A stretch of DNA of 64,000 nt, taken from positions 4 to 64,003 of the forward strand of contig PCXC01000039.1 of NCBI GenBank assembly GCA_002796345.1. The letters are read 5' to 3'. The notes under the pieces are model-generated. The model was not told the DNA's origin, ran no database searches, and saw only the letters and a program-made list of their open reading frames with translations. The DNA is from Deltaproteobacteria bacterium CG11_big_fil_rev_8_21_14_0_20_42_23. GTDB taxonomy: Bacteria; UBA10199; 2-02-FULL-44-16. Each line of letters starts with the position of its first letter. Within the stretch, counting starts at the first letter, position 1. Made by a program: the position numbers and the translations under genes. Positions 38,151 through 42,840 of this stretch are shown here, one piece after another.

Positions 38151-39587
38151 TTATTCTTTAGTTGGAATATCATATTTCTTCACCAAATTTCTCAAATGCT
38201 TTCGATCTATTTGGGCTTCGCGTGAAGCTTTTGAAAGATTGTAGTTATGCTGCTTTAACAGTTCCGTTAAATATTCGCGTTCGAAGTTTTCCACTACATG
38301 TTGTTTTGCATCTTTGAAGGGAATATCTGAGTCAATAGTCATCCGTTCGGTGCGTTCTTCACCATGTTCAAGTTCGGCAAAAATATACTCCAAATTTTTT
38401 CGCGTGAGTGTGTTTCCATCTGCGAAAGAAACCGCGCGTTCCACTACGTTGTGCAATTCTCGCACATTTCCCGGCCATTCGTAGCGTGAAAACATTTTTA
38501 AAGCTTCATCTTCCACTTTAGTTACGCGGAGAGTGCCATCTGTATTTTTGTTGAAGGGTCTTTCCTTTAAAAAATGCTCAACAATTAAGGGAATGTCTTC
38601 AGGTCTTTCGCGAAGAGAGGGAATGAGAATTTTAACAACGGAAAGACGATAGTAAAGATCTTCTCTAAAATTTCCAGCTTGAACTTCTTTGCGTAAATTT
38701 CTATTGGTGGCGCAAATGACGCGTACGTCTATCTTTACGGGCACATTACTTCCAACGCGTCTAATTTCTCTTTGCTCCAAAGCTCTCAAGAGTTTTGGCT
38801 GCAAATCTGAAGCGAGCTCACCAATCTCGTCCAAGAAAATAATTCCGCCACTTGCAGCTTCAAAAGCACCACGTCTGGATTTGTGAGCGCCAGTGAATGA
38901 ACCTTTTTCGTGGCCGAAAAGTTCTGACTCAATCAAATTTGCAGCTACAGCTGAACAATCGAACACAATGAAGGGCGAAGATTTTTTTCCACTGTGTTCA
39001 TGAATTGCTTTCGCAACAAGATCTTTACCCGTTCCTGTTTCTCCTTCGATAATAACAGTTGCTTGCGAAGGTGAAATTTTTTCCAGGATTGAAAAAATCT
39101 GGCGCATTTTTCTGCTGCGGCCAACAAGTTCTCCAAATGCTTCACGATCGGAAGGATCGATTTTAACTTTTTCATCGAAAGCCACAAATTCGAGTGTGGT
39201 GCCGCCAATTTTGATAAGGTCGCCAGGGCTCAAGTAGACTTCTTTTACACGCGAGCTATTGAGGTAGGTTCCATTTGTAGAGCCAAGATCACGAAGTAAA
39301 AAAGCATCATCAACATAATCAATCTCGAAGTGTTTACGGGAGACAGTTTTATCGGCAACAACCAAATCATTGTCTTCACGTTTTCCAATACTCATTTTAT
39401 CTTTGGAAAGCGTGATTTTTTTTCCACGCGTTGCACCATCAGTAACAATGAGCTGACATTTTCTAAGAGAAATAACTTCAGGTCCGTCTTCAAGTTTGAG
39501 AAGTTCCGTTTTGCTTTCAAAATCTTTTGTAGCCATAAGCTGCTCCTTACATCTATTTTTCGAGGATGATATTAAATCTTGTTTCAC
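38151..39587 (-). CDS. Sigma-54-dependent transcriptional activator with an N-terminal FHA domain (FHA-AAA+-HTH)
   Basis: FHA motifs ([32 protein letters not shown]). Sigma-54 AAA+ motifs [17 protein letters not shown] and [17 protein letters not shown]-terminal Fis-type HTH. Confidence 0.8.
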
Positions 39588-42213
39588 CTGAGCTATCCAT
39601 ATCGAAAGTTCGTTTCCAAGTTTTGTACCCTTTGAGTTTTACTTCAATTGTATGAGGTTGGTCAGTTCGAACTTTTTTTACAATAACAGGAGTAGGTGGA
39701 GTGTTTTGCCCATCAATAACAACTGATGCACCTGGAGGTGTGGTGGAAATGCTCACCTCACCATAGAGATCACCCAACGTAATGTTACTTAAATTAATGG
39801 TTTCTCCAGACTTCAGCTTCATTTTTTTCACGAAACGCGCTCTTCCTTCTTTGGTGACAATAATGGAAACATTTCCAGGATCAACGCTTACGGTAAGAGG
39901 TGTAGTTCCTTTTGGGTCTCCGTTTATGAAGACATCGGCATTTGAAGGATTTGATTTGAGAACAATTTTTCCAGGTTTCCCACCTTGTCTTTGCGGTGTT
40001 TCATCTGCGGGAGCAGGAGTTGGCGTTTTCACTTCAGCTTTTTCTTCAGTGAGGCTTACATTCAAGCTCTCTTTTTCTTTTTGGAGTGATTTTTTTCGAT
40101 AAGCGGCTTTATAGCCATCTTTTTCAAGACGAAGAGAATAGGTTTTTCCTTGGAGCAACTCAGGGATTGAAAGCGGTGTTTCACCTTTTTTCTTTCCTTC
40201 TAAAAAGACAGTTGCACCGGCCGGAGAAGAAGTGACTGCAAGCGTTGCAGGTTTTGCAGTTTCTGGTTTTGGTGCTTGCTTTTCTTCAGCTGCTTTCACT
40301 TGTTCGGTTGAAGCAAGTGAAGCTTCAAGTTGAAGCGTTTTTGTTCCAGCAACATCAATGCTTTGCGACCACGAAGTAAAACCCTTCATCTTTAATTCCA
40401 CTTTGTGTTTGCCGAAGTCGATATTTCCAATGGTGGCAGGAGTTGTTCTTCCTGTTTCAGTATCATCGATATAAACCGAGGCGCCAGCTGGAGTGGAGCT
40501 AATGAAAACAGAACCTTGATTGCTTTGTAAACGTGAAAGGGTTTTTGAAATTTTTTGAGGTTTTGAATTTGTAAGATTTACCGTTTGTTCAAAATCCTCA
40601 TAGTCAGGTTTTGAAAGTGTGATCTTCAAATCGGTATTGAGCGGCAAGTTTTCAACGGTAGCTGGAGTGGTCATGCCGGTGAGTCTTCCATCTATTGATA
40701 TAGCTGCTTCTGATGGATCGGTGATAATGTTCATTGATCCCGTTGCTGCTTCCATTCTGTATCTTAATTCTTTTGTCGTTCTGTCTTTAAGCGTGAATTT
40801 GTCTTCAAGTGGATTGTGCTTATCCAGTTCGAGGCGAACTGTATGCTCTTCATCAAGTGTAATTTCACTTAAAGTTGCGGGTGTTGTTTGATAAGTTTTT
40901 TCGCCATCGATGAGGATGGAAGCGCCGCTTGGAGTTGAACGAACTTCGATACTTCCTTGAAGTATTGAGCTAACAGGGCTTTCACTTTTTTTCCAAAACT
41001 GAAGTTTGGGAAAAAAGGCAAATGAAGCTGCAAGGCTTATCAATACTAAAAGTGCCAAGACAGGTTTAAGATAATTGCGCGAAGTTTTTTGCTTTCCTCC
41101 GGATCTGCTGGTGGTTTCTTCGCCAGATGCGCTGCCTTGTGTGATTTCTGCGTCCAAGGCCCTAGCTTTTTGTGGAGTAGGGGTGCGATGCACCAGTTCA
41201 ACTTGCTTTGCACTTTCGCGAATGCTCATTGAAGAAGTTTGTTGCTCAAGAGCGGATTCTTTTGCAGATTTTTCACCTTCGACTGAGATTTCATCTTTAA
41301 AAGTGTTGCGAATAAATTCTGCCAATTTTCGAGGAGAAAAATCGGAATTGCTTGAATAAAGATATTTTGTCAGTGCAATTTGAAAATCTCCTGCATTTTC
41401 ATATCGCTCTTCAACAGTATAAGCTAAAGCCTTTGCGAGGATGGCTCTTATTTCGGTTGGAATTTTTTTGTCTAAATTTGAAGCGTCAATTTTAATCGTT
41501 CTGATTTTTTTCAAGACTTCAAATTGAGATTCACCCGTAAAAAGTTTTTCACCAGTGAGCATCTCATACAAAAGAATTCCCGTTGAAAAAATATCGGTTC
41601 TGCTATCAACCGTTTTCCCCATTGCTTGTTCAGGTGACATGTAAGCAATTTTGCCTTTGAGAATTCCTGCCATGGTATGCGAAATATTCATGGCCGCTTT
41701 TGCGATACCAAAATCCACAATTTTTACTTCGCCTTCAAAAGAAATGAGCACGTTTTGTGGGCTTACGTCTCTATGAACAATGTGAAGTGGAGTATTGTTG
41801 TTATCAGTTTTTCTGTGTGCGTAATCGAGGCCTTTACAAATTTCACTACAGATATAAACGGCAATTTCTAGAGGGATTTTATCGCCTTTTTCTTTACAAT
41901 GGTACACTACGTCGCGAAGATTTACGCCATGAATAAATTCCATAGCGATAAAATAGTCATCGCCAACTTTTCCCAAGTCGAATACTTGCACAATGTTGGC
42001 GTGCGAAAGCAAAACAGAAAGTTTTGCCTCATCGATAAGCATATGAATAAAATCTTTATCGGCCGCACAATGAGGAAGGATACGCTTTATCGCCAACTGC
42101 TTTTCAAAACCATCCACGCCAAATGTTTTGGCTTTATAAATTTCTGCCATGCCGCCGACAGCTAATTTATCGAGCAGATAATATTTTCCAAACTGTTTTG
42201 ATTCAAAACTCAT
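39553..42213 (-). CDS. Receptor-type Hanks Ser/Thr protein kinase with 5-6 extracytoplasmic PEGA domains
   Basis: Kinase subdomains GGMAEIYKA, AIKRI, HRDVSPQNVL, DFGIA and SPEQ. One TM (LALLVLISLAASFAFF). Repeated PEGA-type modules (STPSGASILIDGEKTYQTTPATL, STPAGASVYIDDTETGRTTPATI, SSPAGATVFLEGKKKGETPLSI, SNPSNADVFINGDPKGTTPLTV, TTPPGASVVIDGQ). A 35-nt overlap with the downstream FHA regulator gene. Confidence 0.8.
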   Translation of the reverse strand: MSFESKQFGKYYLLDKLAVGGMAEIYKAKTFGVDGFEKQLAIKRILPHCAADKDFIHMLIDEAKLSVLLSHANIVQVFDLGKVGDDYFIAMEFIHGVNLRDVVYHCKEKGDKIPLEIAVYICSEICKGLDYAHRKTDNNNTPLHIVHRDVSPQNVLISFEGEVKIVDFGIAKAAMNISHTMAGILKGKIAYMSPEQAMGKTVDSRTDIFSTGILLYEMLTGEKLFTGESQFEVLKKIRTIKIDASNLDKKIPTEIRAILAKALAYTVEERYENAGDFQIALTKYLYSSNSDFSPRKLAEFIRNTFKDEISVEGEKSAKESALEQQTSSMSIRESAKQVELVHRTPTPQKARALDAEITQGSASGEETTSRSGGKQKTSRNYLKPVLALLVLISLAASFAFFPKLQFWKKSESPVSSILQGSIEVRSTPSGASILIDGEKTYQTTPATLSEITLDEEHTVRLELDKHNPLEDKFTLKDRTTKELRYRMEAATGSMNIITDPSEAAISIDGRLTGMTTPATVENLPLNTDLKITLSKPDYEDFEQTVNLTNSKPQKISKTLSRLQSNQGSVFISSTPAGASVYIDDTETGRTTPATIGNIDFGKHKVELKMKGFTSWSQSIDVAGTKTLQLEASLASTEQVKAAEEKQAPKPETAKPATLAVTSSPAGATVFLEGKKKGETPLSIPELLQGKTYSLRLEKDGYKAAYRKKSLQKEKESLNVSLTEEKAEVKTPTPAPADETPQRQGGKPGKIVLKSNPSNADVFINGDPKGTTPLTVSVDPGNVSIIVTKEGRARFVKKMKLKSGETINLSNITLGDLYGEVSISTTPPGASVVIDGQNTPPTPVIVKKVRTDQPHTIEVKLKGYKTWKRTFDMDSSGETRFNIILEK

Positions 42214-42228: not shown

Positions 42229-42840
42229 TTAAGTAAGCTGCAAGAAGAGGAAAAACAAAAACAGAAGAAGAAAAATGACTCCTGCAATGTTCATCCAATT
42301 TATTTTTCCATTGCTATAAAAAATATGTTGAATGCTTTCATGTTCTTCATTTTTTTGACTTTCAACTTTTTGCAGCTTTTTTTCCGAAAGAGGAAAAGAA
42401 CCTGAGTGTCCAGAAAGTTGTGGCAATCCAATTTCAATTTCTTCTCCAGTTTTCCAGTATTTGTCAGGAACTTTTTGCCCAACTTGAAAATGTTGAAGTT
42501 TTACAAAATGTTCAAGTTTTGAAAGCAGGATGTGGGCTTCATCTGTTATCTGCCCATTCTTCCAACGCAACGTGCAAATAAGAGTTGCGATGCCTTGACG
42601 TTGAACCACATGTTTAAAGATGCAATCTAAAATGCGATCGGTTTTTATTTTACTGGGCTTGATGGTGATGGATCGCTGATGAAACTTTTCCCACTCTTTT
42701 GCTTGGCCTGCATTCGATGACTCTTCATCGCCTTCTTGATCGGGCTGTTGTTGATTTCTCCTTTGCTCGTCACCTGCAGCAGAGGATTCGTTTATACGAT
42801 ATGTTGGCCGCAAATCTGGCCGGTCAATTTTGTCGACCAT
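42229..42840 (-). CDS. Hypothetical protein with a C-terminal membrane anchor; the first gene of the kinase operon
   Basis: C-terminal TM IAGVIFLLLFLFFLFL and an acidic/Gln-rich N-terminal region. It lies 15 bp upstream of the kinase start. Confidence 0.4.
   Translation of the reverse strand: MVDKIDRPDLRPTYRINESSAAGDEQRRNQQQPDQEGDEESSNAGQAKEWEKFHQRSITIKPSKIKTDRILDCIFKHVVQRQGIATLICTLRWKNGQITDEAHILLSKLEHFVKLQHFQVGQKVPDKYWKTGEEIEIGLPQLSGHSGSFPLSEKKLQKVESQKNEEHESIQHIFYSNGKINWMNIAGVIFLLLFLFFLFLQLT

Follow-up and report, generated by a model that had tools for sequence, protein, structure and literature searches.

A conserved receptor kinase and FHA-domain sigma-54 activator as candidate regulators of an adjacent type III secretion cluster in the phylum UBA10199

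A 64,000-nucleotide (nt) stretch of contig PCXC01000039.1 (hereafter, the window) from Deltaproteobacteria bacterium CG11_big_fil_rev_8_21_14_0_20_42_23, a member of the phylum UBA10199, carries a type III secretion system (T3SS) cluster that is convergent with an operon for a small membrane-anchored protein, a receptor kinase of the Hanks type with PEGA repeats, and an enhancer-binding protein with an N-terminal FHA domain. Does a signal received by the kinase reach the neighboring secretion genes through this FHA-containing sigma-54 activator? The original prediction, made from the letters of the sequence alone, proposed that it could. Our analysis upholds that proposal in part: the domain logic, the gene linkage, two conserved sigma-54 promoters, and a palindrome that these promoters share argue for control of T3SS expression by the kinase and activator, whereas 12 of 49 species carry the module with no T3SS beside it. 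We give the whole chain, in which a one-step module from Hanks-type kinase to sigma-54 activator controls the adjacent T3SS cluster, a probability of roughly 0.5.

Conservation of the module and of its predicted target promoters

Three co-directional open reading frames (ORFs) had been predicted between positions 38151 and 42840, and all of them are present there, on the minus strand, in the order small protein, PEGA kinase, FHA activator. A profile of the FHA region, run against one genome per species, yielded ~60 orthologous loci in the phylum UBA10199. The kinase gene lies directly upstream of the activator gene in all 50 of the 50 informative species-level loci, an arrangement far beyond chance. 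A hidden Markov model built from 21 copies of the small protein identified a homolog before the kinase in 44 loci, in all cases with a hydrophobic C-terminal helix. The module is a conserved three-protein set, often with a zinc-ribbon gene in front. Identity to the window proteins is 63 to 76% for the activator, 40 to 75% for the kinase, and ~30% for the small protein; for this last protein, a word-indexed homology search returned only itself and a profile search returned 15 unnamed relatives. The top 120 relatives of the activator all come from uncultured UBA10199-type metagenome-assembled genomes (MAGs).

Is the linkage to secretion genes also kept in these relatives? A convergent T3SS/TPR cluster adjoins the module in 37 of 49 species and is absent from this position in the other 12. 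The gap between the facing stop codons is usually below 300 nt. In the window it amounts to 203 nt from the activator to the stop codon at 37947, close to the 200 bp originally estimated, and homologs of the genes of the window's convergent operon lie downstream of the activator in related loci.

We searched for promoters of the sigma-54 class with the pattern TGGCAC-N5-TTGC. One match precedes the convergent operon, and another precedes a gene of the T3SS cluster that encodes a FliA/WhiG-like sigma factor (Table 1). Of the related loci with a homolog of the operon's leading gene, which encodes a protein of 386 amino acids (aa), 10 of 10 have a promoter of equal or better score in the same place as the first match. 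The second recurs, as TGGCAY-N5-(T/G)(C/T)TGCA, before the sigma-gene ortholog in all metagenomic loci that include the upstream sequence (6/6). The background is 30 such strong matches per 1.0 Mb of loci, both strands counted.

Each of the two promoters is preceded by a palindrome of 16 bp with the form GGGG-N8-CCCC. These are the only GGGG-N5-12-CCCC sites in the 64-kb window, and both are upstream of T3SS promoters. The palindrome reads GGGGTC-N4-GACCCC in several loci. A GGGG-N8-CCCC element is found 126 to 153 nt upstream of the orthologous promoter in loci L004, L005, L011, L012, L014, L018, L021, and L028, and the palindrome lies ~120 nt upstream of the conserved sigma-gene promoter in the metagenomic loci L072 and L076; the chance of meeting GGGG-N8-CCCC in a given 36-nt interval is ~8e-4. 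An IHF-consensus site stands between the palindrome and the promoter of the convergent operon, and 4 of 11 orthologous promoters have the exact IHF consensus, WATCAANNNNTTR, at -49 to -61, compared with 0.09 expected from shuffles. The succession of palindrome, IHF site, and promoter is the classic layout of a promoter dependent on an enhancer-binding protein, and the sharing of the palindrome argues that one activator serves both promoters.

One alternative is that the GGGG-N8-CCCC elements are terminators or the sites of some other factor, in which case the promoters would be real but would not say which activator acts on them. Both window elements start shortly after a stop codon (10 to 32 nt past it) and precede a T-run, so that they also resemble weak terminators, a point that counts against our assignment; in L010, a similar element with ATTTTG immediately after it follows yceD, with no sigma-54 promoter nearby. 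On the other hand, the stem is just 4 to 5 bp, conservation extends to the sequence and the N8 spacing, beyond what the ability to pair would demand, and the distance to the promoter is fixed at 118 to 153 nt. The counterparts in L072 and L076 stand apart from real terminators. Because a real GC-rich terminator precedes the element in L075 and L076, and because most orthologous copies have no T-tract, the palindrome is not simply the terminator of the upstream gene. We regard simple intrinsic terminators as unlikely, and this alternative as a whole as quite improbable.

A second alternative concerns the regulon itself. The module may be a general envelope or cell-cycle unit of the yggS/proC/yggT block with its regulon elsewhere, the T3SS being a frequent neighbor whose promoters are served by another activator. 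Such an activator is encoded in the window: a second sigma-54 activator of 537 aa, with two FHA domains, an AAA+ domain, and HTH_8, lies on the minus strand at 62214-63827, and this double-FHA protein, 24 kb away, could serve the same promoters. Its presence is one of several observations that weigh against a module devoted to the T3SS. The other flank of the module holds yggS, proC, yggT, and yggU, followed by MlaEFD and PrkA. The linkage to the housekeeping genes yggS/proC/yggT is as tight as that to the T3SS, and linkage to yggS, yggT, and the zinc-ribbon gene extends to nearly all loci, including those that have no T3SS. The 12 of 49 species in which no T3SS adjoins the module speak against an exclusive T3SS role; the activator is still ~60 to 73% identical in them. 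Seven of the 12 are close relatives (L007, L008, L010, L013, L015, L017, and L020) with an activator that is ~70% identical, and the other five are the most distant loci (L056 to L060). In L017 and L020, strong sigma-54 promoters stand before unrelated genes that are convergent on the activator. In the distant T3SS-linked clade L029 to L054, no promoter/palindrome pair was found between fliR and the TPR gene; some sigma-54 promoters occur elsewhere in these loci, with C-rich upstream elements. No rpoN gene turned up in general scans of the window ORFs, which included no search aimed at rpoN, and the source is an uncultured MAG.

The general-unit alternative fits less well with three other observations. 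Convergent adjacency to the T3SS persists over activator identities of 63 to 76% while the other flanks change, the 64 kb hold just two palindromes of this kind, each an element of a T3SS promoter, and the distant second activator has no link to the cluster. We consider this alternative conceivable but doubtful, and we proceed with the reading in which the kinase and activator control the adjacent T3SS cluster.

A candidate phosphothreonine switch

The assignment of the last gene of the module to an FHA-containing sigma-54 activator was borne out by Pfam, which reports FHA (E = 1.8e-20), Sigma54_activat (PF00158; E = 4.9e-69), AAA_lid_14, and HTH_8. In a 478-aa form of the protein, PF00158 spans residues 154 to 320 and includes the Walker A and Walker B (FLDEIGE) motifs; the AAA+ domain matches ZraR, NifA, NtrC, and FleQ with E-values of 1e-75 to 1e-68. 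The loop that contacts sigma-54 is GSFTGA in the window protein, and 120 orthologs divide into 54 with GAFTGA and 66 with GSFTGA. The HTH_8 match (PF02954; E = 6.5e-5) is marginal, scoring 23.0 bits where the cut-off is 22, yet it is recorded for most orthologs. No NCBIfam equivalog model attains its cut-off on the activator.

The FHA domain was modeled with AlphaFold2 (AF2), with a predicted local distance difference test (pLDDT) score of ~84 to 91 over residues 30 to 120. In a Foldseek search, the nearest structures were GarA and OdhI (E = 2e-11; TM-score, 0.9 to 0.96; root mean square deviation, 0.8 to 1.8 A), and the model also matched complexes of the Bdellovibrio DgcB FHA domain with its own phosphorylated N-terminal tail. 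The modeled fold is thus the eleven-stranded beta-sandwich of FHA domains. The domain aligns to GarA without gaps, and Ser66, Arg67, His69, Thr87, and Asn88 are invariant in the family. Residues 1 to 19 have pLDDT values below 50 and are predicted to form a disordered tail. Ahead of the FHA domain, this tail carries the motif K9-T10-E-L-L13-K, and 118 of 120 activator orthologs conform to K-T-x-[LIV]-[LI]-K, the two exceptions being N-terminally truncated gene calls. Together with the analogy to GarA, OdhI, and DgcB, the conserved tail and the modeled domain suggest a self-recognized phosphothreonine switch centered on Thr10.

A receptor kinase with extracytoplasmic PEGA repeats had been predicted upstream of the activator. 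In agreement with this, the protein consists of a kinase domain (residues 1 to 300; Pkinase, PF00069, E = 5e-36), a juxtamembrane linker, one transmembrane helix (residues 380 to 398), and six PEGA repeats C-terminal to this helix (PF08308; E = 1.8e-79 over six stretches). Since the kinase domain is N-terminal and cytoplasmic and there is a single transmembrane helix, the repeats are placed outside the membrane by the deduced topology. The closest solved relative is PknB (E = 1.7e-41). K43, E62, D149, N154, D167 (of DFG), and the activation-loop residue T180 are present, and they are invariant in the orthologs. The linker contains the motif T326-x-S-[MILV], which is T326-x-S-M in the window and 92% conserved, followed by Q-x-x-[IL]-V-H-R. 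A plausible role for the T326 motif is that of a second docking site for the FHA domain.

Two departures from the canonical residues weigh against signaling by phosphorylation. The catalytic loop of the window kinase is HRDVSPQN, in which Ser replaces the canonical Lys of HRDxKxxN; of 50 orthologs read, 47 have HRD[IV]SPQN and 2 have HRDINPQN, with 1 spurious match. "Hanks-type" is accordingly our assignment from the fold and the remaining motifs, and catalytic activity is putative. In the FHA domain, the phosphate-contacting Arg of GarA, part of a GR motif, is replaced by Lys52, and G-K is found in 118 of 120 orthologs.

On another reading of these changes, the membrane protein would be a pseudokinase or a scaffold and the FHA domain would bind a partner that carries no phosphate; the signal would then consist of regulated binding or membrane sequestration, perhaps on the tail-anchored protein. 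The missing Lys is the one that contacts the gamma-phosphate, the Arg-to-Lys change is an invariant one, and a conserved, membrane-tethered cytoplasmic partner does exist. Binding of FHA domains to unphosphorylated tails has been stated for DgcB and GarA (PMC6733907). However, the invariance of K43, E62, D149, N154, D167, and the activation-loop Thr is the pattern expected of an active enzyme, and the charge that is lost could come from a conserved KGK in the activation loop. The FHA domain likewise keeps Ser66, Arg67, His69, Thr87, and Asn88, and Lys can still bind phosphate. We judge the pseudokinase alternative unlikely and retain a catalytically active kinase in the preferred reading.

The third member of the module had been described as membrane anchored, and its lone hydrophobic helix, at residues 178 to 196, does lie at the extreme C-terminus; because of this position, the bulk of the protein faces the cytoplasm. 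The protein begins with a conserved MV(D/E)KIDRP sequence, continues through an acidic disordered stretch and a beta-rich core of ~85 aa, and closes with the transmembrane helix. It matches no Pfam or NCBIfam family. The core (residues 58 to 141) is modeled by AF2 with a pLDDT of ~90 and has no fold match in the PDB, the best E-value being 0.19. An N-terminal E-T-K-E-D sequence was considered as an FHA ligand and dropped; its Thr varies among the copies, and the window protein has Ala at this position.

In the mechanism that we propose, we infer the kinase activity, the phospho-sites, the FHA binding, the pairing of activator and palindrome, the direction of control, and the role of the small protein. 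A cue from the envelope or from contact would act on the periplasmic PEGA ectodomain and activate the kinase, which would autophosphorylate at T180 in the activation loop and at T326 in the juxtamembrane linker. The kinase would also phosphorylate Thr10 in the disordered tail of the activator. The FHA domain would then read phospho-Thr10 in cis or on a neighboring protomer, as in GarA, OdhI, and DgcB, and this binding would alter the assembly of the AAA+ domains into an active hexamer; the change could switch the activator either on or off. The hexamer would bind the GGGGTC-N4-GACCCC-like palindromes ~120 to 150 bp upstream of the two sigma-54 promoters, with IHF-type bending between them, and the promoters would drive the FliA-like sigma gene and the substrate/chaperone operon. 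At the membrane, the small protein could act as a scaffold or as a substrate.

A more specific version of this proposal can be put forward only tentatively. A tail-FHA switch in the style of GarA and DgcB may have been fused to a sigma-54 AAA+ motor, whose assembly into hexamers a kinase with a non-canonical loop would drive through a single Thr. With the tail-anchored protein as helper, this circuit would turn on the FliA-like sigma factor and the substrates and would act across the phylum as the master switch of a T3SS that is flagellum-like and seems to have no needle.

Operon structure, secretion cluster, and neighboring features

The coordinates of the module, of its predicted targets, and of the associated regulatory elements are collected in Table 1. 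The window has a G+C content of ~42%.

Table 1. Genes and regulatory elements of the module and the T3SS cluster (positions in the window)
Feature	Position	Strand	Remarks
Palindrome GGGGAGTGAAATCCCC	24474-24489	none	130 nt upstream of the sigma-gene promoter
Sigma-54 promoter TGGCATGTTTTCTGCA	24604-24619	+	35 nt before the FliA/WhiG-like sigma gene; pattern match with two mismatches ends at 24618, 36 nt before the gene
FliA/WhiG-family sigma gene	24655-25545	+	Predicted second target; Pfam Sigma70_r2, r4
Palindrome GGGGTCTTTTTTCCCC	34318-34333	none	Candidate upstream activator site; 118 nt upstream of the 34436 promoter
IHF-consensus site TATCAATTACTTA	34387-34399	-	Between the palindrome and the 34436 promoter
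Sigma-54 promoter TGGCATTGGCATTGCA	34436-34451	+	51 nt before ATG 34503; pattern match with one mismatch ends at 34450, 52 nt before the ATG
Convergent operon (386-aa unknown, TPR, 302-aa unknown, second TPR)	34503-37947	+	End of the T3SS cluster
Structured intergenic element	37957-38117	none	Between the convergent operons
FHA/sigma-54 AAA+/Fis-HTH enhancer-binding protein, 461 aa	38151-39536	-	Assigned by Pfam
Receptor Hanks-type Ser/Thr kinase, 886 aa	39553-42213	-	Assigned by Pfam
Tail-anchored protein, 203 aa	42229-42840	-	C-terminal transmembrane helix
FmdB-family zinc-ribbon protein, 88 aa	42873-43139	-	Probable first operon gene
Sigma-70-like promoter TTTACA-16-TAAAAT	43209-43236	-	In the 160-nt gap after yggU; consensus match only

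The spacing of 15 nt originally given for the small gene and the kinase gene is correct. The overlap of 35 nt given for the kinase and activator genes is an artifact of reading the activator from its first GTG, at 39587. The activator starts at ATG 39536, with AAGGAG 6 nt ahead; its database form has 461 aa, and all orthologs start M..KDFESKT. With this start, the kinase-activator spacing is +16 nt.

The operon, proposed to comprise three genes, probably has four and is headed by an FmdB-type zinc-ribbon gene. The product of this gene scores 59.5 bits with NCBIfam TIGR02605 against a cut-off of 31.3, and 32 nt separate its end from the small gene; the same order is kept directly upstream in many related loci. 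Transcription of the four genes likely starts from the sigma-70-like promoter listed in Table 1, which agrees with the consensus at 10 of 12 positions and is the best match in the region. Three related loci (L013, ~5181; L015, ~6808; L017, ~6784) share a conserved TGGCAY-N5-ATGCA inverted repeat, which lies a short way upstream of the small gene on the strand opposite to it.

The gap between the convergent operons contains a structured element of which the window holds a single copy. Its arms, 37961-37980 and 38093-38112, form a perfect inverted repeat (20 nt or longer) around two hairpins, and the predicted RNA fold has an energy of -63.1 kcal/mol (z = -5.0). No Rfam family matched this element or any other part of the window. 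It is probably a bidirectional terminator or a (miniature) insertion, and it could also be a small RNA.

The T3SS cluster extends over ~21484-34307 on the plus strand and encodes SctJ-like, FliA-like sigma, FliG-, FliH-, ATPase, YscO-, FliK-, FliM-, FliN-, FliO-, FliP-, FliQ-, and FliR-like proteins. Its parts are a mixture of flagellar type (FliG, FliM, FliN, FliO, and the FliA-like sigma factor) and injectisome type (a short SctJ-like lipoprotein and a YscO-like protein), and the ATPase passes the cut-offs of both FliI_clade2 and SctN. Among the ORFs of the window that were scanned, none for a secretin, a needle, FlhA, or FlhB was recognized. The system resembles the needle-less predation T3SS of Myxococcus/M. 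xanthus (PMC12075869). The best NCBIfam model for the FliA-like sigma factor is FliA_WhiG, with E = 8.7e-39, a match that falls under the model's cut-off.

The convergent operon had been taken for a sigma-54-driven operon of substrates and chaperones. The conserved sigma-54 promoter and the TPR genes sustain one part of that description, and both TPR proteins have Pfam TPR matches, including TPR_3; the status of the 386-aa and 302-aa proteins as substrates, on the other hand, gains no support from family or structure. Neither protein has a transmembrane helix, a Pfam or NCBIfam family, or a relative in the PDB. The four genes resemble a series in which putative secretion substrates and class-II-like chaperones take turns. 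As listed, the last TPR gene (37288-37947, plus strand) starts at a TTG and overlaps the gene before it by 92 nt; a start at the in-frame ATG near 37387 (MQTAEPSK...) would leave a 7-nt gap and is the more likely one.

In the leader of the convergent operon (34452-34502), as in the orthologous leaders, a conserved tata(a/g)g..gNcgacggtggt stretch is followed by a hairpin before the ribosome-binding site, e.g., ggtggtaaaatatgccacc in L005. This arrangement may serve post-transcriptional control. Short tandem repeats on the minus strand abut the substrate-operon sigma-54 promoter in L014 (ggtctaa x4, ~10410-10450) and in L025 (ctatcaa/ctataaa units, ~9930-9990). In relatives with no T3SS, a palindrome, TGGGGAGTTCCACCCCCATTTTG (L010, 14035-14050), follows yceD and is followed by no sigma-54 promoter. 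Two further sets of candidates were set aside. Autoregulation of the module was rejected, as the sigma-54-like matches and palindromes in L028 and L034 fall inside the yggT coding sequence, and a candidate promoter in L024 lies inside a DinB-like ORF.

Beyond the module, a PrkA/DUF444 (YeaH)/SpoVR operon occupies 47802-52568 on the plus strand beside MlaEFD, and it is found on the same side in many relatives. A gene at 7084-10389 on the minus strand encodes a large, repetitive, acidic protein of 1101 aa whose sole match is a sub-threshold one to the procyclic acidic repeat family.

Comparison with known systems

The window kinase can be compared with PknB of Mycobacterium tuberculosis, which works with GarA, FhaA, and Rv0020c. 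Both are single-pass proteins with an activation-loop Thr and an S/T-rich juxtamembrane linker, and in PknB systems this linker docks FHA proteins. The ectodomain consists of six PEGA domains here and of PASTA domains in PknB, and the window kinase further differs from PknB in its HRDVSPQN catalytic loop and in having a transcription activator as its FHA partner.

For the activator tail, the closest parallels are DgcB, GarA, and OdhI. Each of these has a tail Thr, with a hydrophobic residue at +3, that becomes phosphorylated and is recognized by the FHA domain of the same protein; in DgcB, where the tail motif is K13-T14...V17, this activates the fused output (PMC6733907). Like these proteins, the activator has a disordered tail with a Lys before a conserved Thr, a hydrophobic +3 residue, and a distance of ~15 residues to the FHA domain. 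It also shares with DgcB the fusion of FHA to an output domain whose activity depends on its oligomeric state. This output is a sigma-54 AAA+ ATPase here, in contrast to the GGDEF domain of DgcB or the inhibition of a metabolic enzyme, and the phosphate-contacting residue is Lys where proteins of the GarA/OdhI/DgcB type have Arg. A further difference is that the window kinase is encoded next door, whereas the kinase of DgcB is unknown.

Control of type III systems by sigma-54 has precedents in HrpR/HrpS of Pseudomonas syringae and in the flagellar regulators FleQ, FlrA, FlgR, and FlbD. The CtcB/CtcC pair of Chlamydia is another example (PMC7482065). As predicted for the window activator, all of these systems employ an enhancer-binding protein on sigma-54 promoters of T3SS or flagellar genes, and in flagellar hierarchies sigma-54 stands above a FliA-type sigma factor, the same order that we predict here. 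The difference lies in the input: HrpR/S, the flagellar activators, and CtcC have a receiver, a FleQ-type regulatory domain, or none, and they are informed by histidine kinases or partner proteins. We know of no FHA domain or Hanks-type kinase partner in any of them. A literature search returned no paper that joins an FHA activator, a Hanks-type kinase, and a T3SS; none that combines Myxococcus, T3SS, FHA, and sigma-54, or UBA10199 and type III secretion; and no FHA sigma-54 activator for which kinase, phospho-site, DNA site, and target operon have been tied together.

The locus described here unites a receptor kinase, a candidate phospho-acceptor (Thr10), a candidate docking residue (T326), a 16-bp palindrome, and two sigma-54 promoters, each conserved across ~50 species. 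Reconstitution of the whole pathway in vitro or in E. coli would be feasible with no need to culture the organism. Such work would reveal how an AAA+ transcription activator is gated by Ser/Thr phosphorylation instead of by a two-component receiver, and it would open a first way into the regulation of the T3SS of UBA10199, which is flagellum-like and poorly understood.

FHA-containing enhancer-binding proteins were reportedly described from the M. xanthus genome by Jelsbak, Givskov, and Kaiser in 2005 (PNAS 102:3010, as cited in PMC11980068). Like the window protein, the M. xanthus activators combine an N-terminal FHA domain with a sigma-54 AAA+ domain and a Fis-type HTH, and because of this matching architecture we file the window protein under the known class of FHA activators. 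The two lineages, both "deltaproteobacterial," are rich in Hanks-type kinases, and input from Ser/Thr kinases, not histidine kinases, has been proposed for both. The presence of a second activator at 62214-63827 implies that the window genome, as M. xanthus does, holds several proteins of this kind. Unlike the M. xanthus type, the activator described here shares its operon with a cognate kinase and a third conserved protein in every genome examined, and its predicted targets are T3SS promoters rather than fruiting-body genes, the likeness between the two resting on architecture. FHA sigma-54 activators have been known from genomes for twenty years; the regulator class is thus a known one, and what is new here is its predicted target.

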